NCBI GenBank assembly: GCA_021081985.1
Contig: GCA_021081985.1_3639.2
Direction: 5' to 3' (one strand)
Length of the DNA stretch: 54,988 nucleotides
Source of the DNA: a phage
The position numbers and the translations under genes are program-made. Under the pieces are notes generated by a model that was not told where the DNA came from, did no database searches, and saw nothing but the letters and a program-made list of their open reading frames with translations. The number at the start of each line of letters is the position of its first letter. Within the stretch, counting starts at the first letter, position 1. This document shows, piece by piece, positions 34,148-54,988 of the stretch.

Positions 34148-34150
34148 CTA

Positions 34151-34892: not shown

Positions 34893-34923
34893 TCTCTTAC
34901 AACCGCACAAAGTAAAATTGTAC

Positions 34924-37806: not shown

Positions 37807-37809
37807 CTC

Positions 37810-39767: not shown

Positions 39768-40088
39768 TTACAAACTGACCTCTTTCTTTGGTAAAGGTTT
39801 AAAGCATGGCGGTAATTCACCACCTAGCGACCAACGTAGAAGATAATTATACCCTGGGAGTCTCTTGATACCGCCTTCTCCTTTATACATCCACGGAACA
39901 AGCGTAGATTCAAATTTTCTCTTGCCTGTCTTTGACTCGTACAATAGCCACATACCTTGGGTATTGGTTCCTGTATCCTTCCAGTTTATCTGCCAATCTG
40001 ATGTTCCCACTAATTCGAAATTGTCTGTTTCTTTCTTTTTCTTAAACCATCCAAACATTACTCTATCCTCACTGATACGTAGCGCCAT
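39768..40088 (-). CDS. Hypothetical protein
   Basis: 106-aa ORF. Confidence 0.35.
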   Translation of the reverse strand: MALRISEDRVMFGWFKKKKETDNFELVGTSDWQINWKDTGTNTQGMWLLYESKTGKRKFESTLVPWMYKGEGGIKRLPGYNYLLRWSLGGELPPCFKPLPKKEVSL

Positions 40089-40215
40089 GTTCTTTTGTAA
40101 TATTCCACAGTTTCCTCCAGTTTGTCAAGAGGAACTCTAGTTTTCAATACCCACCAGTTCCCTAGATATTCGGCAGAACATGCACTCATCCTGCCACATA
40201 TGGTATACGTTGCCA

Positions 40216-40416
40216 CTACATCCTCCACGTTAGTTTCTGAGCGATCTCCAACAAGGCATCTATCTTATGCATATACTCTTTCCTTTTCTCACTGCCAGGA
40301 GGGAATTGGTCTCTCGTTTGCATCAAGGTTTTTATCTCTTCGGACAGATGATTAAGGATTTCAACGCGCTCTCGTTTCCGACCTAGTTGTTCAATTTCTT
40401 TGTCACGACAATTCAT
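40216..40416 (-). CDS. Hypothetical small protein
   Basis: 66-aa helical, charged ORF. Confidence 0.3.
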   Translation of the reverse strand: MNCRDKEIEQLGRKRERVEILNHLSEEIKTLMQTRDQFPPGSEKRKEYMHKIDALLEIAQKLTWRM

Positions 40417-40496
40417 AATGTACCTTACAGTGTTGTCAAACTATGAGAGTATGATAATATACGGTACAACTATTTACAATAGTAGGAGACGATCTA

Positions 40497-40777
40497 TGAC
40501 TGTAAAAATCCCAAGAGGCGGTAAACCAGACAGAAATGAATGTGATAAGCGTGTAAGGGTAGGGAGAATGTGTCTGATTTATGGAATAACCTATCCACCA
40601 ATGGTGCGACTTAATGGTAAAATATGTAAGGTCATCGACATACCAAAAGATAACACAACACGCTTCTTGTGCAAGGTCAAAGGTGAAGAGAAGGTTTTTA
40701 ACATCCCACACAAAAACCTAACAGTTTTGGATCTTAATGACAACATTGTTATCTCCAAATACCGTTGTATAAACTAA
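40497..40777 (+). CDS. Hypothetical protein (plus-strand gene inside the minus block; start trimmed to MTVKIPRGG)
   Basis: Promoter-like TTGTCA ... TGATAATAT upstream, RBS TAGGAGACG, and a bidirectional terminator just downstream. Confidence 0.4.
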
Positions 40778-40782
40778 AATAA

Positions 40783-40810
40783 AAGCCCCACATGGGGCTT
40801 TTATTTTTAT
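40783..40810. terminator. Bidirectional rho-independent terminator between convergent genes
   Basis: AAGCCCC-ACAT-GGGGCTT flanked by an A-run upstream and a T-run downstream. Confidence 0.6.
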
Positions 40811-41547
40811 TCAAAATCATCAACACCGCTATCGGTAAGGTTTTCTCTGCTCGAAGGTTTTGTCGAAAGAACTTGCTCAAGCAGAGAGGAAAATTTCTGC
40901 AAATTACTTACAGAAGAAGCCCCTGCTGCCATGGCAAGCATATCCACTTCTTTTTCGGTAGGTTGCGTCCAGTCTAGAAACATCTCTTTCATGTACAACG
41001 TTGATGTCCCTATTGGTGTGGCGTGGTCAACCCTATCAGCATAGACCCAGAAAAGAACTTCTTTCTCTATACATACACACAAAGCAGCACCCAACGAGTA
41101 TCCTGCAACGAGGGATGGATATCTTGCAACGAGGATCTCGACATTCAGGTCATCCCAGTGAAATACAACACCCAAACACTTCATATCCACAATGTCTTCC
41201 ACTGCGGGTCTTAGCTCCTCATGGGAAGAAAAGGAGTCATAGTTGATATTCTTTATGAATTTAAGAACGTCTTGGCGGTTGTAGGCACAATCGTTATCAC
41301 CTTGCTTCCAGTAACCCCAAAATGAAGTCGATAAATTCAACCAAAAACTTGCAGTTGTCCCTAATGTCTCAGCCAGTTTTTCAGCCACATCCTCTGATAC
41401 CTCTTCCATGTTATAAAGGATGGTTCTCAACTTATTTACCGGTATACCAGATCTGTCAGCAAGATCATCCACACACCAACCTAATGGATCCAGATATTCG
41501 TGGATAATAACCTCCCCTGGTGACACTGGTGCTCTTTCTTTCTGCAT
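40807..41547 (-). CDS. HTH (XRE/HigA-like) DNA-binding protein with a C-terminal domain of unknown function
   Basis: N-terminus after the internal Met: PVSPGEVIIHEYLDPLGWCVDDLADRSGIPVNKLRTIL ... ASFWLNL resembles HigA-type HTH antitoxins; RBS AAAGGAGAA precedes that ATG. Confidence 0.5.
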   Translation of the reverse strand: MQKERAPVSPGEVIIHEYLDPLGWCVDDLADRSGIPVNKLRTILYNMEEVSEDVAEKLAETLGTTASFWLNLSTSFWGYWKQGDNDCAYNRQDVLKFIKNINYDSFSSHEELRPAVEDIVDMKCLGVVFHWDDLNVEILVARYPSLVAGYSLGAALCVCIEKEVLFWVYADRVDHATPIGTSTLYMKEMFLDWTQPTEKEVDMLAMAAGASSVSNLQKFSSLLEQVLSTKPSSRENLTDSGVDDFE

Positions 41548-41600
41548 TCTTTCTCCTTTCTCTCTACCAGAAAACCCTGCTTTGCAGGGTTTTGTTACTA

Positions 41601-41804
41601 TCAGCATTTAGGCGAGCATTTATCGCACGGGCATGAAATTCCGTGGAAACACAAACCTGTTCCGTCTTTCTTGACCCCTGTTCCACCACATTGGGGACAA
41701 CTATCGTGTAAGCATTTTGTTTTTGTTGTCTCCTCTTTATCTTTATTAAAGAAGTTTTTCATAATCATTTTCTGTTGTTCAATCGTAAACATTTGCGTCC
41801 CCAA
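41601..41804 (-). CDS. Small Cys-rich zinc-binding protein
   Basis: 67 aa with C-x2-C and C-x-C clusters (CPQCGGTG, CPCDKCSPKC). Confidence 0.35.
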   Translation of the reverse strand: MGTQMFTIEQQKMIMKNFFNKDKEETTKTKCLHDSCPQCGGTGVKKDGTGLCFHGISCPCDKCSPKC

Positions 41805-42085
41805 AATCTTTCAAGTGCTTCTACCTCTTCCATGTTTGGGAAGATACCATAGAAACAGAACTTACCTTTAGAGAAGTACGGAATAAATACCCGTCCATCA
41901 GATGTTTGAAACATCTTGTCAAAATTTGGTAGCTTCAGGTGGGATTTTATAGCCTCTTTAATACTTTTATCCCATTGATGCTGCCATTTACAGGCTTTTA
42001 GGTACTCACTAATATTGTAAGAACCTACTCTCCCCAAGATACTGGTGAGAAACTTTTTGTTTTTACTAATAATCTTCTTTTTCAC
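41765..42085 (-). CDS. Hypothetical protein
   Basis: 106-aa ORF. Confidence 0.35.
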   Translation of the reverse strand: MKKKIISKNKKFLTSILGRVGSYNISEYLKACKWQHQWDKSIKEAIKSHLKLPNFDKMFQTSDGRVFIPYFSKGKFCFYGIFPNMEEVEALERFWGRKCLRLNNRK

Positions 42086-42314
42086 TCAAAAACCTCGTTT
42101 CTTCAAACTGCTCTGGTGTCAATAAACTTGTTCCTACACGACTGCCATTGCCACACATAATGGGCACGGCAATCATGTGGCTATCCTTTTCTGCATTACC
42201 TAAATCAAGGTACTGCCCATAACGTTTGATAAGTCGGATACTCATTTTTGAATTAGCTAAAGCCCTTGTATTATAGAGATAATCCTCAAGGTACAAATGT
42301 AGAGCGTTTGCCAC
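42066..42314 (-). CDS. Hypothetical protein
   Basis: 82-aa ORF. Confidence 0.3.
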   Translation of the reverse strand: MANALHLYLEDYLYNTRALANSKMSIRLIKRYGQYLDLGNAEKDSHMIAVPIMCGNGSRVGTSLLTPEQFEETRFLSEKEDY

Positions 42315-42316
42315 CT

Positions 42317-42565
42317 TTAAAGATTTTGATAAGAATAATTTATTACGCCGGACCAGTTTTTTTTTTCTTCATGCAACCCTCGCTTGTGCCTGTACATTGC
42401 TAAAGGCCATACAGAACTCACTATAAAGCATTTCCATGCCCAACCCCATGGAGTCTTTGGTGCATAAGCTCGTTCAAGCCATTTACTCTTTTCCATCTCT
42501 GCCGTATGTACAAACCATACGGCAATATACAGTGCAACTATAATGTAGATAAAGCCATTAATCAT
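42317..42565 (-). CDS. Small membrane protein
   Basis: 82 aa; hydrophobic N-terminus MINGFIYIIVALYIAVWFV. Confidence 0.3.
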   Translation of the reverse strand: MINGFIYIIVALYIAVWFVHTAEMEKSKWLERAYAPKTPWGWAWKCFIVSSVWPLAMYRHKRGLHEEKKNWSGVINYSYQNL

Positions 42566-43619
42566 TCATCTTATCCCAACACATTTGTTGTGCTGTCATC
42601 AAAACATCGGCAGCAAAGTTAAGATCTGTTGTCTTCGGTAAATGCGTGTTCTTGTACAGAGTGTTACGAATATAATCATCCTTCTCTTCTGCCCAAGCCA
42701 AGAGCTTCTCCAAAGACCATGCACCATTTCTGATTGCAAGAAGCTCCTGAGCATCAGGTCTTTTTACAAGAACTTTCCCTTCCGTCAGGATTTCTTCTGC
42801 TTGTCGCATCAACCTAACCAAGTGCATACCATGCTTTGAATCGAAGCCATACTTTTCTTCTAACTCATGACGTGCTGGGTTTCTGTTTTCAACCCATGTC
42901 CAGTAGTTCTTATGCTTTTCCTTTGCTTGTTTATGGTCATCTGCTAGATACTTAACGATTAAAATTGGTTTACGTTTCTTATCCTCGCCAGAGAACTGTT
43001 CGTATGGGACTTTACGAATAGAGCCGTCAGAGTTAAACAAGCCAGCATTGTCGTGTGTTCCGATCACGCCATAGATATTATCACCCATTGGTAAAAAGAC
43101 ACACAACTTGTTAAGGTCATCCAGCATTTTCTGGAAGTCTTTGTGTTTTGTAAGATTATCATCCATCCACGAGTGTGTCAAGCGCATGAACTCTTTTTGT
43201 GTTGGTTGCTCTTTAGGCTGCGGGTTATTAATCCATTTATTATGGCCTTTGATACGCTTCAGTTGCGCCATCGCGTACCCAGAAAATGTAAAAGCAACTT
43301 TGCTGGATAGGAGTTTTGGCGCTTGCTCGCGTAGGTACTCGTAAACATCTGAAGTTTGCAGAATGTCACCTCTATCAACAAACATAAGCTCGATGATGTT
43401 TGGGTTCATATCAACGAACAACTTCATGTAGTTTGTTAGCTCATACAGCTTACCATCCTCTTCATCAATAAGAGTCATTTCTCTGTCAACGAAAAATGGG
43501 GTAAGAATGCTTTTAGGCTCTGCACAATAAATTCCGCGAATATCCACATCGGATGTTGGTAAGTTAGTTCCATAGGCAATACTACCGGAGTAACAACGCA
43601 TTAGTTCTAGTTTCTTCAT
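42558..43619 (-). CDS. Pol-beta superfamily nucleotidyltransferase
   Basis: 353 aa; N-terminal G-S-x4-G-T-x4-S-D-V-D-I (GSIAYGTNLPTSDVDI), the minimal NTase signature shared by OAS/CD-NTase-like and RNA-modifying NTases. Confidence 0.55.
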   Translation of the reverse strand: MKKLELMRCYSGSIAYGTNLPTSDVDIRGIYCAEPKSILTPFFVDREMTLIDEEDGKLYELTNYMKLFVDMNPNIIELMFVDRGDILQTSDVYEYLREQAPKLLSSKVAFTFSGYAMAQLKRIKGHNKWINNPQPKEQPTQKEFMRLTHSWMDDNLTKHKDFQKMLDDLNKLCVFLPMGDNIYGVIGTHDNAGLFNSDGSIRKVPYEQFSGEDKKRKPILIVKYLADDHKQAKEKHKNYWTWVENRNPARHELEEKYGFDSKHGMHLVRLMRQAEEILTEGKVLVKRPDAQELLAIRNGAWSLEKLLAWAEEKDDYIRNTLYKNTHLPKTTDLNFAADVLMTAQQMCWDKMND

Positions 43620-43996
43620 TGTTGTACCTTTTTGTCTTTTCTTGCATTATCCCAAAAATTAAGGATATTTTGGTATCGGATCTTGTCTTCCATATATTCA
43701 GCTTCATCCCGAAGATCGCATACATGATCTATTAAGGCACATACCTCATTATGGTATTCTGTATTACTGGTGATGTGCTTAATCATACAAGATCCTGCTT
43801 TCCATTTCGAGAGGGAGTATCTCAGATTATCATCTTTTTCTGTGGGGGAAGCATCAACTAGCACCTTTGCCCTGTTCCCTTGTATCGTTTGTATTGTTCC
43901 TTGGCGCAGTTCGTTATTACCCCAATAGATAAATACTGTATCGCCAACAAATAATCTTGTTCCGCTTGCATCCCTCATTTTATGCCCCCAACACAA
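43616..43996 (-). CDS. Hypothetical protein
   Basis: 126-aa ORF. Confidence 0.35.
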   Translation of the reverse strand: MCWGHKMRDASGTRLFVGDTVFIYWGNNELRQGTIQTIQGNRAKVLVDASPTEKDDNLRYSLSKWKAGSCMIKHITSNTEYHNEVCALIDHVCDLRDEAEYMEDKIRYQNILNFWDNARKDKKVQQ

Positions 43997-44363
43997 AGAA
44001 ATAGTGAACTGTTACCGCTGCGAAGTAAAGCGTTTTGTAAATCAATTGTAACCAGCAATCTCTGTTTGTATACACTTTTCCTGCTAAGATATAGCTACCT
44101 GTTACGAAATGCTCACACACCCAGATCCCCATCAGGAAACCACTAAGCAAGCCTCCTGTTGGTGGTGTTAGTGTGGTAATCATTGCAATTCCTTCGAGGA
44201 AAGTGAATATGAAGAAATATGAGAATCCTTCTCTTGCACATTTTATTCCTCTGCCAGTAACACAGGTATGAACTAAACCTATGAGACAAAAGATCGTCCA
44301 AAGTACATACAATGTATAAACCATAAACCACTTAACCCAAAAAAAAAATGTTAACCTCTCCAA
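43980..44363 (-). CDS. Putative membrane protein
   Basis: 127 aa with several hydrophobic stretches. Confidence 0.35.
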   Translation of the reverse strand: MERLTFFFWVKWFMVYTLYVLWTIFCLIGLVHTCVTGRGIKCAREGFSYFFIFTFLEGIAMITTLTPPTGGLLSGFLMGIWVCEHFVTGSYILAGKVYTNRDCWLQLIYKTLYFAAVTVHYFFVLGA

Positions 44364-44393
44364 CCCTATCAGAGAGGTTTCAGAAATGATTTG

Positions 44394-44891
44394 TTACTCA
44401 CCTTTCAGCTTAAAACTTTTCAATGTTTTGATAAAGTTTTTCTCTGCTGGTGTGTAAGTGTGAACGAAACCTGTTTCTTCACAGGTGTAGGTATCATTAA
44501 TCTCCATCGCATGTTGAGGGATAAATGCACCTTCAGGAGCAGGTTTATATTCTGGGTTGTAGATAAACTCCGGCAGCACAACAGCTACAGCAGTCATTGC
44601 TCCGTTCAAGGCTTTCTTTTCTTCACGCCACCACGCTACTGGGTAAGTCTCTAAAGACATTGCCTGGTCAAGAAAATCTTCAAGCACGGACTGATAACCG
44701 CCATTCAAAACAATAATGGTCTTATCTTCTTCTTTCCAGCATTTCAGCCAATAGTGTGCAGTGATCTGCTCTGGTGTATATGCTTCACCACTATGCAAAA
44801 CCATAAGCTCTGCAATGGCGTGTGCTGATTGGATACCAGCATGGATACCGGAGATATACTGATTAACAATACAATACATTCTTGTTTTCAT
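44394..44891 (-). CDS. Hypothetical protein, possibly PTH2-like peptidyl-tRNA hydrolase fold
   Basis: 165 aa; spacing of AGIQSAHAIAEL, a conserved W, IVLNGG and MTAVAVVLP resembles the PTH2 core. Tentative. Confidence 0.3.
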   Translation of the reverse strand: MKTRMYCIVNQYISGIHAGIQSAHAIAELMVLHSGEAYTPEQITAHYWLKCWKEEDKTIIVLNGGYQSVLEDFLDQAMSLETYPVAWWREEKKALNGAMTAVAVVLPEFIYNPEYKPAPEGAFIPQHAMEINDTYTCEETGFVHTYTPAEKNFIKTLKSFKLKGE

Positions 44892-45106
44892 TTTTGTTTT
44901 TTCCTCAGAATTATTCTATCTTCACTAAAAATTTCCTGTAACCCAGCAGCTATCAGTGCAAATATTGCTACCCACCATACAACTAACAGGAGTACCCCAA
45001 CAAGCAAATCTCTACCTGTGATCTGTTGCTCAATCCTGTAGGTAAAAATAAAGAAAGCTACGGATACTAAAGCACCAACAAAGAAGTAGATAAACACTTC
45101 AGTCAT
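44888..45106 (-). CDS. Small membrane protein
   Basis: 72 aa, two hydrophobic helices. Confidence 0.3.
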   Translation of the reverse strand: MTEVFIYFFVGALVSVAFFIFTYRIEQQITGRDLLVGVLLLVVWWVAIFALIAAGLQEIFSEDRIILRKKQK

Positions 45107-45434
45107 TATCTCTTTTCTCCAAATCCCGTTTCTCCAAGTATCCTTTTACCATAAGTGCTACAGCGTAAATTCCCACAAGACAAATACAAAATGTAAAAAT
45201 AATAGGTAAAACCATTACCGCAAACATCATAAATAGCGGTCCCGCAACAGTAATGAATGCTGTTCCAAGCAACAATAGAAATACTACATATTTATCTGCC
45301 GTCTCATCCACCTTCTTAAGATACACACCTAAACACACAGAAGACAATAGGAATGATAGAATGGACAGCAACAGATACCAATTATCAATAAAGATGATAA
45401 TTGGACCAGCAACATTTTCTAACCACCACATCAT
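45099..45434 (-). CDS. Membrane protein
   Basis: 111 aa, three hydrophobic segments. Confidence 0.35.
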   Translation of the reverse strand: MMWWLENVAGPIIIFIDNWYLLLSILSFLLSSVCLGVYLKKVDETADKYVVFLLLLGTAFITVAGPLFMMFAVMVLPIIFTFCICLVGIYAVALMVKGYLEKRDLEKRDND

Positions 45435-45448
45435 ATATACTTACCTCT

Positions 45449-46693
45449 TTAGAATAACATATCCCTGCTGATTGCTTTACGAATAGCATCAATACGGGCT
45501 ACTCGCACAGCTTCACCAATCTCTTTACCATTCTTACCCTTTTCCAGAAGGGGTTTTGTTATAGCTTTAGAATCAACTTTTGTCATAGCGTCGTAGGCTT
45601 CCAGCAAAATATGACCTTGAAGATAAGGCTTATGCCTAAAATCACCACCTCTTCCTTTAGCATCACAATAACACGCATCTGCAAGTGTGTAAACCTTCAT
45701 TTTCTGATCCGCTTGTCCAGCAGCTTCAAATATTTTCATGATGCTTTTTGGTTTCAAACCGTTGTTACCATCTCTGGGAGAGATGGCGTGCACTTTTGTG
45801 TGATTTTCTGCAACATATTTTGCCGTGTCACGATAGATATTATAAATCTTCAACCTTTCACACAAGGATTGGATAACATCTACACCAGCTTTCTCATGAC
45901 CATGAAGATTACCATTGTCCTTGTAAGTTATAGCTTTGCCAAAATCATGGCACAGCACAGCAAACTTGGTCAGTGGATCAGCTTCTAATTCATCAGCAAC
46001 CCTTAACGCTAGAATTGTATGGGTGTAAGCATCCCCTTCTGGGTGATGTTCTTTAGGTTGTTGCACACCACGTAGGGCTTCCAGTTCAGGAAGTTCGCCA
46101 ATACGTCCCATATTGACAGCAAAAGATCTGAAATAACTACTCTTTAAGGCTTTCAACATTTCCTTCCATTTACGCTCGGCGCTTATTTCTGCCAAAGAGT
46201 GTCGGTTGTCATAAGCCAGTTTAAAAGTTTCTGGATGGATATGCCATTCTTCCCCAAGCTGGGCTTTAAATCTAAACAGGCGTAGAATACGTAATGGATC
46301 TTCAATAAACGCCTCTGATGTATGACGTAATGTTTTAAGTCCTAAGTCAACCTGACCGCCAAAAGGATCAATAATCTCACCACTATCAACATCCATCGCC
46401 ATGGAGTTGATGGTAAGATCTCTACGTGCCAAATCCTCTTCCAGTGTTACATCTGGACTAAAGCATACCTCAAATCCTTTATGGCCTTCGCCTGTTTTTC
46501 TTTCTGTGCGTGCAAGAGCGTACTCTTCTCTTGTTTCTGGGTGAAGATAAACTGGAAAAGATGCGCCAACTTGTGTGAACCCTCTTTTCAGCATCTCTTC
46601 ATGCGTAGCACCAACAACCACATAATCACGGTCTGATATTTCACGACCTAACAATTTATCTCTTACTGCGCCACCTACCAAGTATACCTTCAT
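45449..46693 (-). CDS. cca: CCA-adding enzyme (tRNA nucleotidyltransferase) with C-terminal HD domain
   Basis: MKVYLVGGAVRDKLLG, RDYVVVG, EEYALARTERK, RRDLTINS, GEIIDPFGG and EDPLRILRLFRF closely parallel the E. coli Cca head domain (recalled); C-terminal HDFGKA ... HGHEKAG gives the HD motif. Confidence 0.8.
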   Translation of the reverse strand: MKVYLVGGAVRDKLLGREISDRDYVVVGATHEEMLKRGFTQVGASFPVYLHPETREEYALARTERKTGEGHKGFEVCFSPDVTLEEDLARRDLTINSMAMDVDSGEIIDPFGGQVDLGLKTLRHTSEAFIEDPLRILRLFRFKAQLGEEWHIHPETFKLAYDNRHSLAEISAERKWKEMLKALKSSYFRSFAVNMGRIGELPELEALRGVQQPKEHHPEGDAYTHTILALRVADELEADPLTKFAVLCHDFGKAITYKDNGNLHGHEKAGVDVIQSLCERLKIYNIYRDTAKYVAENHTKVHAISPRDGNNGLKPKSIMKIFEAAGQADQKMKVYTLADACYCDAKGRGGDFRHKPYLQGHILLEAYDAMTKVDSKAITKPLLEKGKNGKEIGEAVRVARIDAIRKAISRDMLF

Positions 46694-47016
46694 TTCTTCG
46701 CCCACGTATTCATATAATTAACAATATCTTTTACGGTTCTCTTTCCGTCCAGTGGATAAACCATGTCATCGCTCATCCCACCGTGTTTTAGCATTGCTAC
46801 CAGTCTAGTATATACCTCTTTTGGTCTTTTGCAAGTTCTTTTCTTCCATTTATGACCGTCTGGGGAGTACTCCTTATCTTCAAGAGAGATATGAAGGATG
46901 TCTCCTATAAACTCTTTTGCCTGTGTGCTGTAAAGCGGACGGTGGAATATATAGAATTTCATTGCTTGCTCCTTTATTGTAATAACAATATCAGTGCAAG
47001 CTACATGTGTCAACAC
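46690..47016 (-). CDS. Hypothetical protein
   Basis: 108-aa ORF. Confidence 0.35.
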   Translation of the reverse strand: MLTHVACTDIVITIKEQAMKFYIFHRPLYSTQAKEFIGDILHISLEDKEYSPDGHKWKKRTCKRPKEVYTRLVAMLKHGGMSDDMVYPLDGKRTVKDIVNYMNTWAKK

Positions 47017-47044
47017 ATAAAGAAAAACCCGCTAAAAAGCGGGT
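47017..47044 (-). terminator. Putative rho-independent terminator (minus strand)
   Basis: On the minus strand AACCCGC-TTTTTA-GCGGGTT is followed by TTTCTTT. Confidence 0.45.
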
Positions 47045-47052
47045 TATCTCTC

Positions 47053-47334
47053 TTACCATGTTACAAATATGTTTATAGATGTGCCTTGTTTTGTTGGCTG
47101 ATAGCTAATAATATCTACCGTGAAACCACCACCACGAAGATCGCCAACAATATGAGGCAGGTAATCACCCATTTCCTCCGGGAACTGTAGTGACATACCC
47201 ATTCCAAATAGACCTTTCTTTGCACATTGGCTGATCCCGTTTACTATCTGGTCGTACAGTTCCACCAGAGATTTTGGGGTGTCCTTTTTCGACTTGTTCG
47301 CTATCTCTCTCATTTTGCTGGCGACATTTGCCAT
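47053..47334 (-). CDS. Hypothetical protein; overlaps the 3' end of the Dam-like gene in another frame
   Basis: 93-aa ORF with protein-like composition; about 170 nt overlap with 47165..47845. Confidence 0.35.
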   Translation of the reverse strand: MANVASKMREIANKSKKDTPKSLVELYDQIVNGISQCAKKGLFGMGMSLQFPEEMGDYLPHIVGDLRGGGFTVDIISYQPTKQGTSINIFVTW

Positions 47335-47845
47335 CTTTACCTCTTAAAAAATAGAAAGGCTTCAAATTAAGGGTGTTCTTTTTGTCCCACACATACCATG
47401 CATACCCGCTTCCATCTGTCTTACCATCCTCTGTAAAAGATGGTCTTTGAGAAAGTACAAGCAGAGATGTTGGGGGATTATCTTGCCACCACTCCCACCT
47501 TTTCATACTTTCAAGAAAACCAAGACGTAGAAGCATGATAACGACATCAGCGTCACGCAGAGCTTTCTCAACAAATTCTTGAGCCAGTGAGTATGGAGGA
47601 TTAGAGATTATGATGTCTGTGTGATTATACTCTGTTGCCAGATAATCAACACCTTGACGTATTTCTCCCCAAGCACTTCCGATTGGTAGAAAATTATAAA
47701 TCCTACCGGAAGCTCTGCACGGCTCCATATATTTCTTTTTCATATCTATGGGGATGACTTCCAACAGGGCTTCAACAGCCCATACTGGGGTTTCATACGT
47801 GTCGTATTCTCTCCGATCACCCTTCCTTTTCAGGGGTGCTACCAT
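47165..47845 (-). CDS. DNA N6-adenine methyltransferase, phage Dam-like (true 3' end uncertain)
   Basis: YETPVWAVEALL near the N-terminus, DIIISNPPYS (NPPY catalytic motif), VVIMLLRLGFLES and YAWYVWDKK; the last 55 aa of the ORF look like readthrough. Confidence 0.6.
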   Translation of the reverse strand: MVAPLKRKGDRREYDTYETPVWAVEALLEVIPIDMKKKYMEPCRASGRIYNFLPIGSAWGEIRQGVDYLATEYNHTDIIISNPPYSLAQEFVEKALRDADVVIMLLRLGFLESMKRWEWWQDNPPTSLLVLSQRPSFTEDGKTDGSGYAWYVWDKKNTLNLKPFYFLRGKDGKCRQQNERDSEQVEKGHPKISGGTVRPDSKRDQPMCKERSIWNGYVTTVPGGNG

Positions 47846-48792
47846 CAGTTACCAACCTTTTCGATAGTTTCTTTCAGAATATCTTCGGAAACACTAAGAA
47901 TTTGATTCAGTAGAATGTCTCTTTTGTGTGGTATTACTCTGGCTTCATTCTCACCATATTGCATGTTGTTTAATTGTACAAGAATTTCTTTTAGCTCGTC
48001 AACATTAAAACCATCAAAATCACGTTCGTTCAAAGTTGACATATTGAAACTAAAATTCTCGCCACCAACCGCAATGTTCATAAGCATTTCTTGTACCTCA
48101 CCTTTAGGAACAGCATCTATGTTTTGGGGTGTGACATTCTTAACCACTGTTGTTTTTGTGGTTTTTGAGCCTGTTACATACTTCAGCCCTTGTTGCTCTC
48201 TTCGGATATTCTCTTTATCCAGTAAAGCGGCTTCTGTGCGTGCCAAAATATCTTCTTCTGTCAACCAAACTTCCCCACCACCTTTAATGGTTTCCATTTC
48301 TTCAGGTGTTAGCACATCTTTATAGAAATAATCGAAGACACGATCAAAGTAGTCTTTTTGGAACACAGCTTGGCGGTAAATGTTGGATCCGTCTCCACCT
48401 ATCCAACCCTGATAGTTATGGAACATAAAAATTGTCAATGGTGAAACAGTTCTACGCTCACATGCCAACCATAATACTGTTCCTGCTGAACACACTTGGC
48501 CTTCTGCATGAACAATAACCATGGCCTGACTTTCTCGGATGGCGCTAACGTATGCCATAGCAATAGCAACATCTCCACCCAATGTATTTATAATAATGCG
48601 TACCGTATCCTCTGGATTGGCTGCACGAATTGTTTGTAACCGCTCTTGGTGATCTTCCAACCAATGCATCTCATTAACGTAAATGACATGATTATTAGCA
48701 TGAGCACGATATGTAAAAACATTAGCAGTCTCTACACGGTTAACGTTAAAATCATTACTCAGTTTTTGCATTACAACCTTCTCCGTTTTCAA
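47845..48792 (-). CDS. ClpP-like serine peptidase (S14 family)
   Basis: INTLGGDVAIAMAYVSAI ... VHAEGQVCSAGTVLWLAC parallels the ClpP active-site region INSPGG ... GQAASMG. Confidence 0.55.
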   Translation of the reverse strand: MKTEKVVMQKLSNDFNVNRVETANVFTYRAHANNHVIYVNEMHWLEDHQERLQTIRAANPEDTVRIIINTLGGDVAIAMAYVSAIRESQAMVIVHAEGQVCSAGTVLWLACERRTVSPLTIFMFHNYQGWIGGDGSNIYRQAVFQKDYFDRVFDYFYKDVLTPEEMETIKGGGEVWLTEEDILARTEAALLDKENIRREQQGLKYVTGSKTTKTTVVKNVTPQNIDAVPKGEVQEMLMNIAVGGENFSFNMSTLNERDFDGFNVDELKEILVQLNNMQYGENEARVIPHKRDILLNQILSVSEDILKETIEKVGN

Positions 48793-49252
48793 TGAGGATA
48801 CCCATCAAAATATGGCTATTACTCAAAAGCCAATCTATGTTTATGCCGCACTCCTCATCAACAATAACTTTGTCGCTATATCTGGAGCACCGGATAACTC
48901 TACGAGCATATTCAGCCGCTATAGCTGCTTGGTGTATAATTGTAAACCTATCAAGTTCATCTTTAGTAAGATGAATGAACTTAGATTTACCATTCATACA
49001 GATGAGATGCTCCAGCAACTCAATTCTGTTAGAGAACATCAATTCAGCATCCTTCTTAGCAGCACTTTCAGAATAAAACATACTAGCTAAGAGGCTTTTA
49101 TTAACAATTCTTAAAGAATTAGCCACCGTGGTCATATATCTGTTATAAAGCTCAGTAGCCATCTCTTCAAACACGTCAGGCTCTACAACACCACAATTCT
49201 GTAACTTTACCAAGGTATCGTTTGTTAAGACACTACAGACAGTATTTTTCAT
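48755..49252 (-). CDS. Hypothetical protein
   Basis: 165-aa ORF. Confidence 0.4.
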   Translation of the reverse strand: MKNTVCSVLTNDTLVKLQNCGVVEPDVFEEMATELYNRYMTTVANSLRIVNKSLLASMFYSESAAKKDAELMFSNRIELLEHLICMNGKSKFIHLTKDELDRFTIIHQAAIAAEYARRVIRCSRYSDKVIVDEECGINIDWLLSNSHILMGILIENGEGCNAKTE

Positions 49253-49258
49253 TGTCCC

Positions 49259-49567
49259 CTACCTAGCAATTAGATATTGTATCTTTCCGTCATCTTCCTG
49301 ATACCCAACATCTACAACATAGTATTCTCCAACATCAGGAATCAACAACTTATCCCCAACCTCGTACTCTTTTGGGGTATGGTATACCATTGATTCTGTA
49401 AAATATTTGTACTTATCCGTATCGTTAATGTTGCATGAAATTTCCATTTCTCCGTTGTTGTTGGGTATGAGAATATCCTCACCATTCTTTTTCCCAACCA
49501 CATAACCACCTACCAATGTTTTAACTAAGCACAGTGTTTTATTGAGTTTGTCTTGGAACTTTGGCAA
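49259..49567 (-). CDS. Hypothetical protein
   Basis: 102-aa ORF. Confidence 0.35.
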   Translation of the reverse strand: MPKFQDKLNKTLCLVKTLVGGYVVGKKNGEDILIPNNNGEMEISCNINDTDKYKYFTESMVYHTPKEYEVGDKLLIPDVGEYYVVDVGYQEDDGKIQYLIAR

Positions 49568-50183
49568 AAGAATCCTCCATTTTGTCCAGGAATGTTTCCA
49601 GGAGTTTTATTCTTTCTGGTGTGTTAAGATTAAGTGTTTTAATCCCTTTCATCTTAGCAAGATTGACAGCAGTAGCCGTGCCGCCTCTTGGATTACCATT
49701 CTTATCTTCTTTTGCGAAGTAGAGCACAAAGGAAGATGGCTTTGGGTTGTTAATATTCACTCCCAACACTTGATGCACATTCCTAGAATGTAACGCAAAT
49801 GCTGCTCTGTTTCTCAACAATGCTTGTGGGTTTGGATGCACCTTTTGCACCAACTCATCTCGGTATTCTATTTGATCGATATATAGATGGTTAATATATT
49901 GTAAGCCATAATCCCAGTTATCGTACAAATCCACTTCTTTATCGCCAAAACCTTTCCATGGTATGTAAATTTCTGCGAGTCTGTTACCATACAATATTTT
50001 GGTTTTATCGTCAAGGCTATCGAAATATCGCTGCATCCCTCTCTGGAACGCCGCATCAGCCCCTTCTGCCTTACCGCTCCGCAATGTAAACCCTAACCCA
50101 GCCAGTCTAAAAGCAGCGTCTTCCATGACGCTGATAACTTCTGGGGGTGTTTCACGAGAACCTACCCCAGTATAATAACGCAT
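49539..50183 (-). CDS. Hypothetical protein, possibly SLOG/DprA-like Rossmann fold
   Basis: 214 aa; N-terminal YTGVGSRETP and C-terminal GGTATAV are reminiscent of SLOG-family nucleotide-binding proteins. Weak. Confidence 0.3.
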   Translation of the reverse strand: MRYYTGVGSRETPPEVISVMEDAAFRLAGLGFTLRSGKAEGADAAFQRGMQRYFDSLDDKTKILYGNRLAEIYIPWKGFGDKEVDLYDNWDYGLQYINHLYIDQIEYRDELVQKVHPNPQALLRNRAAFALHSRNVHQVLGVNINNPKPSSFVLYFAKEDKNGNPRGGTATAVNLAKMKGIKTLNLNTPERIKLLETFLDKMEDSFAKVPRQTQ

Positions 50184-50191
50184 AAACCCCC

Positions 50192-50980
50192 TTATGATGC
50201 CATTGGTGTGTAAATACCTTTATCTCTGTCTTTCAACAATCCCTTGGCGATTTCCTTGACAACACCACCACGGACTACATCCTGTAGTTGATTAAATTGA
50301 ACAATACCCACACCAGAAATATTATGTCTGTGGAGAAAATCTTCAACCCATTCCAAACCAGAGACACCACGTATATCTTTTTGACTTTCATCCCCCATGA
50401 TGACAAGAGTGCAATTATCTGAAATACGAGTTACAATACTCAGCATTTCTTCTGGAGTGCTTTGTTGTGCCTCGTCAATCAGTAGAAAGCTGTTTTCATC
50501 AAACGATCTTCCTCTAATACTCTCCAACTCTTGCACCTCGATACGTCCATGCAGTCCATCTTTCAATGAATTATAATACGCCCCATCACCCATTCTTTTA
50601 CGAATTGTATCGAGCATATTCCTTACGTAAGGATATAGTTTCTCCAGAGTAGAACCAGGTTTGAATCCAGAGGTCTTTCCCGTTTGCACATATGGCCTTG
50701 CTACAATGATTTTATCTATCTCATTTTTCCTGAGAAGATCAGCAGCATATGCAGAGGCGAGATATGTCTTTCCTGTTCCAAAGATCCCTTTTGCTATAAT
50801 GATGTTACAGGTCTTAAGTTTTTGGAGGTAATCTTGTTGCTTTCTATTCATGGCAACAAGTGTTGGGGCACTATTTCTCTCTTCCTCAAACTTAGGCTTG
50901 TATTTCATCTTTCTTTCATCGCGTGCTTTCTTCCTTGCAGCAAGTTTCAAAGCACGCGTCTCTTTACTTCTTCCCATCAA
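50192..50980 (-). CDS. phoH: PhoH-like ATPase
   Basis: 262 aa; Walker A GIFGTGKTYLA, then RGRSFDENSFLLIDEAQ and the VIMGD region, typical of PhoH. Confidence 0.75.
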   Translation of the reverse strand: MMGRSKETRALKLAARKKARDERKMKYKPKFEEERNSAPTLVAMNRKQQDYLQKLKTCNIIIAKGIFGTGKTYLASAYAADLLRKNEIDKIIVARPYVQTGKTSGFKPGSTLEKLYPYVRNMLDTIRKRMGDGAYYNSLKDGLHGRIEVQELESIRGRSFDENSFLLIDEAQQSTPEEMLSIVTRISDNCTLVIMGDESQKDIRGVSGLEWVEDFLHRHNISGVGIVQFNQLQDVVRGGVVKEIAKGLLKDRDKGIYTPMAS

Positions 50981-50989
50981 AGGATCTCC

Positions 50990-51694
50990 TTAAGAGTTCA
51001 GAACAGATTTGGCTTTATTATAGTATGCAGTTCTTTCAGACAGATGATTTGTCCCACCATTCACAAGTTTTGTTATTTTTACAATATCGTCAGCATCACA
51101 GGCTGCATTAATATCCCGAGATTGCCAGTACCAACCAGCACTTAACACAGCATACTCCGGCTGCTCAAGAAGCTCTGGGTGATTAATCAAATCTATACCT
51201 AGAGCTTTGCCACAATCTCTATAATTGGCATAACCTGTAATCTGGATAAGGCCTCTTCCTTTATACTTTGCCCCATCACCATCTTTTTCCGGTGTATTGC
51301 CGAGTTTTTTTGCTAGGCTACCTGTGTCATACTTATCAAAGTATGCATCATTACCAAGCTCTCTGACATATTTAAACTCAGCAGACTCAACACCTATCTG
51401 GGATAGAAAACCAGCTATCCTGTTTGTGGTGTTAATATCTGTTTTCAAGAAAAGATTGTTTAGGGGTTCAAGGAATTTAGAATTTCTGTTTGCTTTTGCT
51501 CCGATAGGAAATATCTTGTCCAATTGCGCTTGTGTAAGTAGTGTATTCCCCCCGTTTGTCGAGTTAGCTTTTTGTATGCATTTTTCCAATGCGGATTTAG
51601 TGGCGGGGCCATAGATACCATCAGCCCCAGATTTTCCTACACTAAAACCACCATTTATCAGCATACGTTGAATTTCGGCTATCGCAGAGTTCAT
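50990..51694 (-). CDS. Endolysin: N-terminal peptidoglycan-binding domain plus glycoside hydrolase family 19 catalytic domain
   Basis: N-terminal GADGIYGPATKSALE (PG_binding_1-like); catalytic AGFLSQIGVESAEF, KYKGRGLIQITGYANY and SAGWYWQ are GH19 hallmarks. Confidence 0.7.
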   Translation of the reverse strand: MNSAIAEIQRMLINGGFSVGKSGADGIYGPATKSALEKCIQKANSTNGGNTLLTQAQLDKIFPIGAKANRNSKFLEPLNNLFLKTDINTTNRIAGFLSQIGVESAEFKYVRELGNDAYFDKYDTGSLAKKLGNTPEKDGDGAKYKGRGLIQITGYANYRDCGKALGIDLINHPELLEQPEYAVLSAGWYWQSRDINAACDADDIVKITKLVNGGTNHLSERTAYYNKAKSVLNS

Positions 51695-51709
51695 TTTCCC
51701 TCTTCTGTG

Positions 51710-52168
51710 TTAGCCCTCTCCAATTGCCTCACTAAAAGCTGTTTGAAAACTGGAAGCGACCCCAGCAAGTTTAATCGTAATTCTTTCTTGGTAAATTGCA
51801 TACGCTAGCTCATCTGGTGAAAGAGCTTCTTTCAGATGACCAGCCATTACACCCATCACTTTCTCAAGTGTGTCTTCAGATAACATCTTCTTGAGCCGTT
51901 TCTGGGCTGTGTTTAACTCTTTCTCAAGGGTTGGGTTAGAGTCTTTCTTGGCTTGCGCTTTCATCCTCTTCATGGAATCAATCATTAACTGAGTATCCTC
52001 AGTCACCTGATTAATCAATCTTGGAAAGATCAATTCTGCAAAAATATAGGCCAACTCTTCATGAGTTTTAAGAAGTAAGCTATCAATCGTTAATTTTGGT
52101 GCGTACAAGTTTTCTTCATTAATGATATCTGCCATGATATTATCCTCTACGGGTTGCCCGTGCTGCAT
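51710..52168 (-). CDS. Hypothetical protein
   Basis: 152-aa helical, charged ORF. Confidence 0.4.
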   Translation of the reverse strand: MQHGQPVEDNIMADIINEENLYAPKLTIDSLLLKTHEELAYIFAELIFPRLINQVTEDTQLMIDSMKRMKAQAKKDSNPTLEKELNTAQKRLKKMLSEDTLEKVMGVMAGHLKEALSPDELAYAIYQERITIKLAGVASSFQTAFSEAIGEG

Positions 52169-52286
52169 TATCTGCCATTACCTGAAACAATTCCTCTTCG
52201 GTAATCTTTCTTTTCTTGCGTTTTCCACTACGCAGTGCCAGCGCAAGCTCTTTTTCATATGCCTTTCGTAGAGTTTTCTTACTCAT

Positions 52287-52760
52287 TTAAATCCCCTCTT
52301 TCCACAAACCATCTTTTTTAACCCACATTTTTTGGTTATCAGAACCCCTGAACCTTTTGGTTGTAGGCTTAGTCATATCATACTTACCATCTATAACAAT
52401 GTCAACAAGATTCTTAATTCTTTCAGGTATTTCTTCAAATAAATACCCTGTCCACAGCCAAATGTTTTTATCATCTCCGTAAACTGACCGTACCTTTAAA
52501 ATAATCTTTATAACACCATCAATATTTTGCGGATCAAGTGGTTCCCCACCTAAAATTGAGAGTCCTTTTATTTGCTTACGTGCCAAATCCTTTATGATTC
52601 TATCTAAATGTTCATCTGTAAACACTTCGCCATAACTGTATGACCAAGCTCTTTGGTTAAAACAGCCGCGACAACCATGACCACAACCGCTAACCCAGAG
52701 GGAGCATCGCACTCCCTCCCCGTTGATCATATCTGTTGGTTCATAACCGCAGAAATTCAT
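52287..52760 (-). CDS. nrdG: Anaerobic ribonucleotide reductase activating protein NrdG (radical SAM)
   Basis: 157 aa; GVRCSLWVSGCGHGCRGCFN carries the CxxxCxxC radical-SAM cluster motif; sits directly downstream of the NrdD C-terminal exon. Confidence 0.8.
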   Translation of the reverse strand: MNFCGYEPTDMINGEGVRCSLWVSGCGHGCRGCFNQRAWSYSYGEVFTDEHLDRIIKDLARKQIKGLSILGGEPLDPQNIDGVIKIILKVRSVYGDDKNIWLWTGYLFEEIPERIKNLVDIVIDGKYDMTKPTTKRFRGSDNQKMWVKKDGLWKEGI

Positions 52761-53241
52761 GTATGTTTCACTCTCTCAATAACCTCTTGCATCTTACCTT
52801 TGTTGTAAGGACGGCTGTTTGGAGCAGACAAATATCCAGACACACGTCTAATCACACTTATTGTTTCTTCATCATGATTGCCACAAGAAGGACACTCGAA
52901 CCCCTTGGCTGTGGCCTTAAACTCACCAGAGAAGCCACACTCGTGACATCTATCTACAGGTTGATTTATACCAAAATAAGGGATGTATTCATATCCATAA
53001 TCCACTAAGGCTTCCAATGCTTGCATGTTGTTTTTTAGATTAGGAACTTCCACATAACCTATGTTGCCACCATTACTTATCTCAGCAAACCCACATTCAT
53101 AATCCCATTTGAAGAATGGATCAGACGTTTTCCACACTGGTTGATGGAACGAGTTTGTCAAATAATCTCTTTCAATTAACCCAGGATATGCTTCTTTAAG
53201 TTTTGTGGCAAATTTATAACACAGAGATTCTGCCGATGTAC
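52757..53241 (-). CDS. nrdD: NrdD (anaerobic ribonucleoside-triphosphate reductase) 3'-terminal exon; upstream boundary approximate
   Basis: C-terminal zinc ribbon CHECGF ... CPSCGN followed by glycyl-radical motif RRVSGYL and ERVKH tail. The frame stays open upstream of the annotated TTG start (...SAESLCYKFATKLKEAYPGLIERDYLTNSFH) up to an in-frame TAA inside the intron. Confidence 0.75.
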
Positions 53242-53514
53242 CGCTGCTTTCGCAGTATTTTTACGGACTAGACTATATCACGATCTTGTGACCACTCACA
53301 AGACCCTCCACATTTCGCCATTCAAGGCTACTCTACTCGCTTCTTCACATCAGGTGAGGCTGATGCTATGCTTTCGATAGTCGTTAGAGACAATTTCTTG
53401 CCTACGGGGTTAGCTCTGCCCCCAGCGGGGTTTAGCCTTTCTTACCAGCTTATTGTTTATTCAGCTATGCCCGTTTAGTGGAGTTATTCGACAACCATCA
53501 CTGGTTGAAGGCCC
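53242..53514 (-). other. Group I intron (ORF-less, about 270 nt) within nrdD; boundaries approximate (about +/-20 nt)
   Basis: Minus strand carries CUAAACGGG, R-like AACGACUAUC, S-like GAUAUAGUC (P7 pairing GACUA/UAGUC), a GNRA-capped hairpin CUGCGAAAGCAG before the 3' junction, and a possible P1 between exon ACAACU and internal guide GGUUGU. Confidence 0.65.
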
Positions 53515-54019
53515 AGTTGTGTCTAGGCGTGCCATATAAGCTAAATGCTAAACCACTTCGCTCTTTAAAATCAGCACAAATATCCTTCATATATTTCAGG
53601 ATATTCATTGCCATCTCTTTACGAACTGGCTCACCATGCAAAATTTCAACTGCTTCATAAAGACCTACATAACCAATACTGATTGATGCGTAGCCATTAA
53701 AGAAGAGTTTACTAATCTTCTCATCAGGTCCGAGCCGTGCAATAGCCCCCTCCATAAACATTGTAGGGTTCTGGGATGCTTTTACATCCATCAATCTACC
53801 GACTCTAACCATATGCGCTTTATATGCCATTTCCATGTGCTTTTCAAGCAATTCGGTAAACAGAGTTTTCTTAGATTTTGCTTCTGCTGCAATCATAGGT
53901 AAGTTTAGAGAGACAACACCAAGATTGAATCTACCATCATATTTCTCACCATGCTCTGTTGCATAATAAGATAAGAAACTTCTACACATTATGTTCGAAG
54001 TGGTTCGCAAGGTCACTCC
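53515..54019 (-). CDS. nrdD: NrdD internal exon; boundaries approximate
   Basis: Open frame (ORF 53498..54016 plus upstream codons) with NLGVVSLNLP, IMCRSFL and GYASISIGYVGLYEAV; ends near ...SLYGTP before the intron. Confidence 0.6.
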
Positions 54020-54238
54020 CGCACCATTACGTGCTGCTGCATGTCACCATGCAGATCAGACCATATCTTCATGCTTAAAGCATGTCTGCCGTTTGGGGTG
54101 TCATCAGCTTACACTCTACATCCTTACATTCATCAGGATTGGTCGTTAGGCATTTACGGTTGATACCGATTTAGCACGGGATTCCCTCCATAGAGGATTC
54201 CCCCGTTTAGGCAGATTTTACATGAGCAGTTATAGTTT
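54020..54238 (-). other. Group I intron (ORF-less, about 220 nt) within nrdD; boundaries approximate
   Basis: Minus strand CUAAACGGGGGAAUCCUCUAUGGAGGGAAUCCCGUGCUAAAUCGG closely resembles the T4 td intron core as recalled; R-like AACGACCA and S-like GAUAUGGUC show a compensatory P7 change (GACCA/UGGUC); GNRA hairpin CUGCAUG-GUGA-CAUGCAG near the 3' end; P1 candidate exon CAUGGGU with guide GCUCAUG. Confidence 0.7.
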
Positions 54239-54544
54239 ACCCATGCTTGTAACACGCCCGTCTGAAGAACCTGTTACCTTTTTATTCAACGGTACAGATA
54301 TGAAATCTGGATAAATCCTTTCAACACAACACTCCATGGCTAATTGCTTTAAGTCGTAGTTTGGATCGCCAGGCTTCATGTTTACACCATCTTCCAAGAA
54401 GAAGATAACTTTTGGAAAAACAGGTGTGACTTTATCTTTGCCAAGTCCGTTTTTGTGAACAAGAAAATAATTCTTTGTAATCATTCTCCCAAAATAGGAA
54501 GTATCAAGCCCAAGGCTCAAGGTGATAAATGGGCATTGCATTGC
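54239..54544 (-). CDS. nrdD: NrdD internal exon; boundaries approximate
   Basis: ORF 54230..54541 (MQCPFITLSLGLDTS ... RVTSMG); the in-frame stop lies just inside the following intron. Confidence 0.55.
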
Positions 54545-54817
54545 CCACTTTATGTTTCCATAAAGACAGACTATCTCTTAGCATCTCCTAGATGCTCTCT
54601 CCGTTTCGGAGTTGGTATTTCAACCAACCACTACACTACTGGGTTGTGCTTCACAAAATCCATTTCGCACCTTTTCGTTAGTCGTTACAACCGCCAAGCC
54701 AGATGCCTGACTGGTCACGGGATTAGCATAGCTCTATGCCTTAGCGTTCCCCGTTAGCCAGAATATATCTGACCCCACTTGTGTGGTTAGGAGAGTTTTA
54801 TAACGGCCATTGTGTTA
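54545..54817 (-). other. Group I intron (ORF-less, about 270 nt) within nrdD; boundaries approximate
   Basis: Begins UAACACAAUGGCC (compare the td intron start UAAUUGAGGCC, recalled) right after exon codon GGU; contains CUAACGGGGAACG, AAUCCCGUG, R-like AACGACUAACG, S-like GAUAGUC and a GNRA hairpin CUUUAUG-GAAA-CAUAAAG before the 3' junction. Confidence 0.6.
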
Positions 54818-54988
54818 ACCGTTAGCACTCATCAAGGTATTTACCTGATAAAGCAATGTCTGCATGGCATCGTAAACATCTTTTTCCGTCATCTGCATAG
54901 CTACACCTTCTGGATCTGGCAGCCATTGCTCCTGACAAAATTTTAGATTTTTATCGTAACTTGCCTTGGCATATTGTTTTAATCCTTC
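54818..54988 (-). CDS. nrdD: NrdD upstream exon, partial (gene continues beyond window end)
   Basis: Minus-strand frame from the window edge reads EGLKQYAKASYDKNLKFCQEQWLPDPEGVAMQMTEKDVYDAMQTLLYQVNTLMSANG, then a stop at the proposed intron start. Confidence 0.45.

Follow-up and report, generated by a model that had tools for sequence, protein, structure and literature searches.

A conserved out-of-frame overlap between a small methyltransferase gene and its downstream neighbour in Avunavirus and related phages

The window analysed here, a stretch of phage DNA of 54,988 nucleotides (nt) (contig GCA_021081985.1_3639.2), belongs to an Avunavirus (Vequintavirinae), and the region of interest is 94-97% identical to the genomes of phages Av-05, TH18 and 18-1-2. 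On the minus strand of this region, an open reading frame (ORF) for a ClpP-like protease is followed by a methyltransferase ORF of 226 amino acids (aa) and then by a 93-aa ORF, hereafter called ORF2 (Table 1). The TGA stop codon of the protease ORF and the ATG of the methyltransferase ORF share a base (TGATG, in the sequence aacTGATGgta). An initial annotation of the window had noticed that the methyltransferase ORF overlaps ORF2 in another frame by about 170 nt, and the overlap is indeed exactly 170 nt long (47165..47334). Three explanations had been offered, namely that the methyltransferase is shorter than its ORF suggests, that the two genes truly overlap, or that there is a frameshift, be it biological or a sequencing error. 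Our comparative analyses make it highly probable that this is a genuine same-strand, out-of-frame overlap maintained by selection.

The long form of the locus, with a methyltransferase of 225-227 aa and a full-length overlapping ORF2, is found in the genera Avuna-, Seuna-, Mydo- and Henunavirus as well as in six metagenomic lineages. Its carriers are Av-05, TH18, PVP-SE1, SSE121, GAP31, 4MG, KB57, Mydo, DP, pEp_SNUABM_01 and six metagenomic contigs. The Avunavirus relatives Av-05, TH18 and 18-1-2 all have the same 681-nt methyltransferase ORF. The long-form genomes were sequenced independently in Mexico, China, Europe, Korea, Canada and the USA, and others come from metagenomes. The initial annotation had looked to relatives with a conserved 226-aa length and no overlapping ORF as evidence against its reading; the relatives have kept this length, but they have kept the overlapping ORF as well. 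Comparison across the four genera and the metagenomic lineages indicates that both frames are conserved and carry signatures of selection, as described below, in agreement with the earlier suggestion that the two genes truly overlap.

In other relatives, the same neighbours meet at a much shorter junction. The ORF2 homologue of rV5 and LL12 (gp119, 94 aa) follows a 177-aa methyltransferase with an ATGA junction, and in two metagenomic contigs, L040 and L041, the ORF2 homologue overlaps the methyltransferase by 22-23 nt only. These loci (gp118/gp119 in the Vequintavirus rV5) resemble that of the window in the order protease, small NPPY methyltransferase and ORF2, in the homology of the proteins and in the position of ORF2 directly next to the methyltransferase. 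They differ in that the methyltransferase is 177-182 aa long and the overlap is limited to 4-23 nt, and the frame that would correspond to the end of the long methyltransferase contains 3-8 stops within the first 55 codons of ORF2. The junction of L041 (L041:1201-2012) is a mosaic of a Certrevirus-like short methyltransferase (182 aa) and a Henunavirus-like ORF2 in the +2 frame, with a 22-nt overlap, and the N-terminus of this ORF2 is 61% identical to that of pEp_SNUABM_01. The mosaic suggests that recombination may also occur at the methyltransferase/ORF2 boundary. Another metagenomic contig of 120,968 bp (L039:1201-2212) carries a 167-aa methyltransferase followed by an HNH_3 homing-endonuclease gene instead of ORF2.

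The recognisable methyltransferase motifs lie within the first ~166 residues (EPCRASG at aa 41-47, NPPY at aa 82-85 and PFYF at aa 163-166), and the 56 residues encoded in the overlap are hydrophilic and of low complexity (for example ISGGTVRPDSK and SIWNGYVTTVPGGNG), much as the initial annotation had described them. Residues N82, P83 and P84 are invariant in 62 homologues, and the last invariant column of the family corresponds to W153. The AlphaFold2 model of the protein has predicted local distance difference test (pLDDT) scores of 94-98 over ~aa 20-130 and of 83-97 up to ~aa 170. A comparison with homologues had been proposed as a means to find the expected C-terminus: homologues outside the overlap clade are 166-183 aa long and end soon after the PFYF/PFYW motif, and members of the clade have 225-227 aa. 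Because the former end there, the last 56 residues appear to be a lineage-specific tail, with the core of the family ending at ~aa 166-170. The proposal that the methyltransferase is shorter than its ORF would thus hold for its history, but not for the present-day protein, in which the tail represents an addition specific to the lineage.

The qualifier 'Dam-like' used in the initial annotation is a loose one. The protein has a (D/N)PP(Y/F) motif in the form NPPY and a predicted adenine-methyltransferase-like fold, but it scores far below the cut-offs of the curated Dam families, with 14.7 bits against a cut-off of 28.1 for PF05869 (phage Dam) and 14.0 bits against 97.05 for TIGR01712 (phage_N6A_met). 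Its sequence has no match in the PDB. Foldseek comparison of its model with the PDB gave 48 matches at E <= 1e-3, starting from 3e-6, with type I M subunits, PacII, CamA, M.BseCI and the rRNA adenine dimethylases Dim1/KsgA as top neighbours. The methyltransferase is thus outside the curated Dam families, and its structural neighbours belong to the gamma class rather than to Dam. Its likeness to the gamma-class N6-adenine enzymes (HsdM, CamA, PacII, M.BseCI) and to the small phage 'Dam-like' enzymes lies in the class I S-adenosylmethionine (SAM) fold, the NPPY motif and the order of the motifs, motif I being upstream of motif IV. It differs from them in its core of only ~170 aa devoid of a target-recognition domain, in Foldseek identities of 9-17% with TM-scores of ~0.45-0.53, and in falling below every curated profile cut-off. 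Judging from the model, it probably has adenine-methyltransferase activity. ClaI patterns reported for Certrevirus fit Dam-type methylation and were not tied to the methyltransferase homologue (PMC7344957), and a high sensitivity to restriction systems has been reported for Vequintavirinae (PMC8594841).

ORF2 appears to be a real gene over its full length, homologous to rV5 gp119. A tblastn search with ORF2 retrieved 190 phage records, each with at least 80% query coverage, and the match with rV5-like phages extends over aa 7-93. Similarly, the phrog_12158 profile matches ORF2 over aa 6-93 of 93 (E = 7.1e-19). In overlapped ORF2s, the first 56 residues (an example of an N-terminal peptide from the overlap region is SLVELYDQIVNGISQCAK) are up to 61% identical (34/56) to those of short-overlap homologues. 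In the ORF2 frame, the ratio of the proportions of non-synonymous to synonymous differences (pN/pS) is 0.43-0.63 for ORF2 and 0.55-0.63 in the overlap. The AlphaFold2 model of ORF2 (pLDDT 77) consists of two helices, a strand, a helix and two strands. No match to ORF2 was found in Pfam or NCBIfam, and its model has no significant fold match in the PDB (best E = 0.04). A protein search with ORF2 yielded 8 clusters only, probably because gene callers rarely call the full-length ORF. IMG/VR scans returned 2 loci with the ORF2 protein and 10 loci with an alignment as queries, mostly in the same reference genomes, and contributed little further diversity.

Each codon of the tail takes its first base from the third position of one ORF2 codon and its other two from the first and second positions of the codon that follows. 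A stop codon therefore arises in the tail frame wherever an ORF2 codon ending in T precedes a codon starting with AA, AG or GA, and we refer to such junctions as at-risk junctions. To determine how many stops should be expected over the 55 junctions, we resampled synonymous ORF2 codons using the codon usage of the window, which was applied to all phages. No tail-frame stop is present in Avuna-, Seuna-, Mydo- or Henunavirus, against ~5 expected (P(0) ~0.001 per lineage), whereas the rV5 homologue used as a control has 5 stops against 5.4 expected. In the 11 full-length lineages, T is found at 0/50 proximal and 1/81 distal at-risk junctions, the lone distal T being part of the terminator of lineage P0012c itself, compared with 13/48 in the C-terminal part of these genes, outside the overlap (p = 4e-5 and 8e-6). 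For the five most divergent lineages the count is 0/62, versus 16/36 in the three short-overlap (4-23 nt) controls (p = 8e-9). More generally, T at third positions of ORF2 codons amounts to 6-11% in the overlap, as opposed to 35-54% downstream of it and 24-29% in the short-overlap controls.

The position of the tail terminator is held as well. All 13 lineages whose tail ends there (13/13) have an ORF2 codon ending in T followed by GAT, although seven different codons fill the first position (GGT, AAT, AGT, CTT, GTT, GCT and CGT), and P0012c terminates one codon earlier. Read-through past the methyltransferase TGA would append the tryptophan-rich sequence LPASYCWRSSWWWFHGRYY. Four lineages have truncated tails, with methyltransferases of 219 aa (FENT2), 205 aa (P0023), 198 aa (P0024) and 194 aa (P0025). 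Past the new stop, third-position T increases from 0-9% to 17-30% in these lineages (FENT2, P0023c, P0024c and P0025c), P0023c and P0024c contain additional stops past the truncation, and P0024c and P0025c no longer have the old TGA. The return of T and of stops downstream of truncations is what relaxed constraint should look like. In a single genome, an open frame of this length is unremarkable, as 17 alternative-frame runs of at least 55 codons are found among the 34 long ORFs of the window, so significance comes from the comparative data only. A chance open frame, which the single-genome test alone does not distinguish significantly, was rejected on the basis of the resampling and of the control lineages. 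Altogether, these comparisons indicate that selection maintains an open tail frame.

This selection seems to act mainly on the openness and the composition of the tail and not on its sequence, with amino-acid constraint apparent in the proximal tail only. As a baseline for the methyltransferase frame, we used its pN/pS in the non-overlapped part of ORF2, where that frame is non-coding (1.56); the corresponding value for the proximal tail is 0.84. The AlphaFold2 model has a helix at aa 172-187 (pLDDT ~65), and the remainder of the tail is predicted to be disordered (pLDDT 41-48). No stop is found in the first 23 tail codons of any lineage, and the truncated lineages all keep at least 23 tail residues. 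A proximal cluster of arginine and lysine (R/K) residues, such as RDRKQRRK, is present in 17/20 sequences. Short-form relatives (P0038, P0040, P0042, P0044 and P0068) harbour unrelated basic C-terminal tails. There are thus hints that a charged tail might help a small methyltransferase devoid of a target-recognition domain. In the models, the tail and the ORF2 protein look complementary in structure: the helix of the tail coincides with the first 20 residues of ORF2, which are modelled with low confidence, and the disordered stretch of the tail with the folded part of ORF2.

Several observations weigh against an overlap maintained by selection for both products. Literature searches found no proteomic or ribosome-profiling data on either product. 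The lineages were treated as independent, which is justified only by their near-saturated synonymous divergence (pS ~0.57), and the resampling used the codon usage of the window for every phage. With a pN/pS of 1.47, the distal tail is indistinguishable from the 1.56 baseline and shows no amino-acid-level constraint, the lower value of the proximal tail may be due in part to constraints on the nucleotide sequence close to the start of ORF2, and the synonymous variability of ORF2 is not reduced in the overlap (0.39 versus 0.365). The occurrence of truncated tails in four lineages implies that the distal part at least is dispensable. The Avunavirus lineage of the window has only a weak version of the R/K cluster, and 5/5 overlap substitutions within Avunavirus are synonymous in ORF2 and change the tail; a protein-level role of the tail is consequently weakest in the window genome.

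Much of this would also be expected if the tail were translated but selectively neutral, the ~170-aa enzyme being the working form and the open frame persisting by inheritance and composition. The distal pN/pS, the four truncations, the predicted disorder of the tail and the recent Avunavirus changes all fit such an explanation, as does the fact that long open alternative frames arise by chance in single genomes. However, third positions are near saturation, and yet T is missing from the at-risk junctions of the divergent lineages and not from those of the controls. A neutral tail would hardly have had its TGA held through seven different codons or its first 23 codons free of stops in all lineages, nor would T and stops be expected to reappear specifically after truncation. 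We consider this explanation improbable.

In the selected overlap that we favour, ribosomes starting at the methyltransferase ATG (47845) would read to the TGA at 47167-47165 and produce the ~170-aa core with its 56-aa tail. Other ribosomes would start at the internal Shine-Dalgarno sequence (47345-47340) and ATG (47334), in the +1 frame, and produce the 93-aa ORF2 protein, so that both products are probably translated. ORF2 would be the older of the two frames, since in rV5, L040 and L041 it shares just 4-23 nt with the methyltransferase gene, and methyltransferases elsewhere are all short. In the ancestor of Avuna-, Seuna-, Mydo- and Henunavirus, loss or displacement of the methyltransferase stop would then have overprinted the tail on the 5' half of ORF2. 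Thereafter, the tail frame would have been kept open in two ways, by the barring of T before codons starting with AA, AG or GA and by the retention of the TGA. The proximal tail (~aa 172-190) would be the functional part, possibly aiding nucleic-acid binding, and the distal tail would be a tolerated disordered appendage.

Three states of the locus coexist today, represented by the short-overlap forms (4-23 nt; rV5, L040 and L041), the full-length forms and the secondarily truncated, decaying carriers. A more speculative proposal, which we hold to be possible though rather unlikely, is that the tail is a recently born functional segment seen at several stages of its life, with its helical, usually basic proximal part as a working module. 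Ribosomes that read the tail through the start of ORF2 might also modulate its expression, or the tail might contact the ORF2 protein; we know of no functional link between the methyltransferase and ORF2.

A frameshift, the third explanation of the initial annotation, is contradicted by the relatives: the same frame is common to independent genomes, most of which have neither a homopolymer nor a slippery heptamer, and there is no downstream RNA structure. One form of this explanation holds that a -1 frameshift at T_TTT_TTA yields a 172-aa isoform ending with a TAA 1 nt before the ORF2 ATG, which would couple the translation of ORF2, the long form being the non-shifted product. The window does contain a correctly phased X_XXY_YYZ heptamer, Mydovirus has T_TTT_TTG at the junction, and the -1 frame from the heptamer stops after 2 codons, just upstream of the ORF2 start. 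However, the heptamer is absent from Seunavirus (TAT TTC CTG or TAC TTC CTG at the junction) and from Henunavirus (CAT TTG), both of which have the same architecture with a 226-aa methyltransferase, and most long-form lineages lack a T-run or a slippery heptamer at this place. The 90 nt downstream of the heptamer fold no better than shuffled sequences (z = +0.62), TTT and TTA are common codons for the conserved F-L residues, and ORF2 has its own strong Shine-Dalgarno sequence. We thus rejected a conserved programmed -1 frameshift site and find such a mechanism very improbable. C-terminal extensions generated by programmed frameshifting are known for T7 gene 10A/10B and for the tail chaperones G/GT. 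These proteins likewise gain an alternative C-terminal segment in a frame that overlaps downstream sequence, but the tail described here lies in the zero frame and needs no frameshift, and the heptamer of the window is unconserved and has no stimulator.

It is also most doubtful that ORF2 is really a protein of 39-49 aa initiated at an internal Met, with an upstream half that no longer codes, even though this is how it appears in GenBank and RefSeq. The public annotation gives it 39-49 aa in eight genomes (Av-05, TH18, PVP-SE1, GAP31, 4MG, Mydo, SSE121 and FENT2); among the Avunavirus relatives Av-05, TH18 and 18-1-2 it is either 39 aa long or left out, and it is missing altogether from the annotation of KB57 and 18-1-2. 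The truncated records include RefSeq YP_009111144.1 and YP_004893960.1. Because ORF2 was annotated from an internal Met wherever it overlaps the methyltransferase, the ORF2/rV5 gp119 family is split in PHROGs between phrog_15143 (49 aa), built on the truncated form, and phrog_12158 (94 aa, full length). Against a short ORF2, the upstream half is open in 21/21 lineages, with a conserved Shine-Dalgarno sequence and start codon (GGAGGG 6-8 nt before ATG/GTG in Seuna-, Mydo- and Henunavirus), and, as mentioned above, it corresponds by homology to the N-termini of the homologues with short overlaps, with a pN/pS of 0.55-0.63. Its divergence at the three ORF2 codon positions is 0.33, 0.23 and 0.48, respectively, and aa 21-55 contribute a helix and a strand to the predicted fold. 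The annotators of PVP-SE1 reported similarity just to the 'C-terminus of rv5_gp119', which also argues against a short ORF2. The truncation or omission of ORF2 in genomes of Avuna-, Seuna-, Mydo- and Henunavirus is a systematic mistake of annotation, carried over into GenBank, RefSeq and PHROGs, that our analysis corrects.

Lastly, an indel introduced by sequencing or assembly into the T6 run at 47346-47351 (part of the phased T_TTT_TTA), artificially fusing a 166-172-aa methyltransferase to the following open frame, is vanishingly unlikely and was rejected, since, although the homopolymer lies exactly at the junction and one T fewer or one more would end the protein at ...YF or ...YFFKR, respectively, the same 225-227-aa ORF is present in independently sequenced genomes, the junctions of Seunavirus and Henunavirus have no homopolymer, and the tail frame bears signatures of selection.

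Lambda Rz/Rz1, phiX174 and MS2 are known for same-strand, out-of-frame overlaps that yield both proteins, with translation of the downstream gene starting from an internal ribosome-binding site. Rz1 is wholly embedded, Rz and Rz1 are known partners, and the overlaps of phiX174 and MS2 are tied to very small genomes. The overlap described here resembles these cases in its same-strand, out-of-frame arrangement and its internal ribosome-binding site, and it differs from that of lambda Rz1 in that ORF2 overlaps its neighbour partly and is not fully embedded. Overprinted segments are typically disordered and fast-evolving. As in stop-loss overlaps and viral overprinting (Delaye et al. 2008, PMC2268670; Pavesi 2021, PMC8227390; Schlub and Holmes 2020, PMC7017920), an older frame would here be overprinted by a newer one in a same-strand, out-of-frame overlap, and the new segment is hydrophilic, predicted to be disordered and fast-evolving. 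Unlike those cases, the new frame is a C-terminal extension of an old enzyme and not a stand-alone protein, the host is a double-stranded DNA phage of 120-150 kb without obvious genome-compression pressure, and relatives with naturally truncated tails coexist with short-overlap ones. Annotated viral genomes, among them those of double-stranded DNA phages, commonly contain overlaps of more than 50 nt (PMC7017920).

Literature searches for an earlier description of this overlap or of the enzyme activity found nothing specific, and the overlap is a newly described, well-supported case among known overprinted genes. Its short-overlap, full-length and truncated forms offer a natural series for the study of how overprinting creates a protein segment in a large double-stranded DNA phage. 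The signature is simple and can be checked by eye, as T is banned at specific third positions and a stop is held through seven codons. It suggests that the openness and the composition of a frame are selectable without selection on amino-acid sequence, which bears on the detection of overlapping genes.

Table 1. Genes, sequence signals and protein segments at the methyltransferase/ORF2 locus of the window
Feature	Position	Strand	Evidence or remark
ClpP-like protease ORF	47845..48792	-	PF00574, E = 2.5e-10; start uncertain, 927 nt in the annotation of relatives
Methyltransferase ORF, 226 aa including the tail, ATG start	47165..47845	-	phrog_799 'DNA methyltransferase', E = 1.8e-80
Methyltransferase core, aa 1-170, predicted class I SAM-methyltransferase fold	47336..47845	-	AlphaFold2, Foldseek and invariant N82, P83, P84
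NPPY, methyltransferase aa 82-85	47591..47602	-	Catalytic motif
Dual-coding stretch, 170 nt	47165..47334	-	Tail aa 171-226 and stop (frame 0); ORF2 codons 1-56 and 2 nt (+1 frame)
Proximal tail, aa 172-190	47276..47332	-	Predicted helix; lowered pN/pS; retained in truncated lineages
Distal tail, aa 191-226	47168..47275	-	Disordered, hydrophilic; frame open, sequence without conservation
Methyltransferase stop TGA	47165..47167	-	Third base of ORF2 codon 56 (GGT) and GA of codon 57 (GAT)
ORF2, 93 aa, ATG start, rV5 gp119 family (phrog_12158)	47053..47334	-	+1 frame relative to the methyltransferase
ORF2 Shine-Dalgarno AAGAGG	47340..47345	-	5 nt before ATG; inside methyltransferase codons L167-G169
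T_TTT_TTA heptamer, methyltransferase zero frame	47345..47351	-	Judged incidental; without conservation in relatives
Terminator-like hairpin and T-run	47026..47045	-	7 nt past the ORF2 stop; 8-bp stem, 5 GC pairs, tail TTTCTTTATG
Sigma-70-like promoter TTGACA-17-TATTGT (with TG)	46985..47013	-	10/12 matches; ahead of the next gene
Next gene, phrog_7526, conserved, small	46690..47016	-	Profile match

Downstream of ORF2, the terminator-like hairpin likely marks the end of a unit made up of the protease, methyltransferase and ORF2 genes, and the hairpin and the sigma-70-like promoter together would form a transcription-unit boundary. A gene for a CCA-adding tRNA nucleotidyltransferase (45449..46705, minus strand) is found two genes downstream of ORF2, despite which ARAGORN detected 0 tRNA genes in the whole 55-kb window (1..54988). 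In several relatives, namely L030, L033, L035-L037 and L041, a GmrSD_N / DUF262-type gene (PF03235) is located a few genes downstream of ORF2.

Two other regions of the window drew our attention. Between 36557 and 37231 on the minus strand, three frames are all open for 59-95 codons, with translations unlike those of proteins and a GC content of up to 0.46-0.49. This region has no Rfam match, and its relatives are 87-90% identical and annotated as 'hypothetical protein'; it may be non-coding or otherwise unusual. At 54037..54277 (minus strand), a full-length match to the group I intron model (Rfam RF00028, 80.9 bits) sits inside the gene for the large subunit of the anaerobic ribonucleotide reductase, and relatives annotate this gene in two pieces there.

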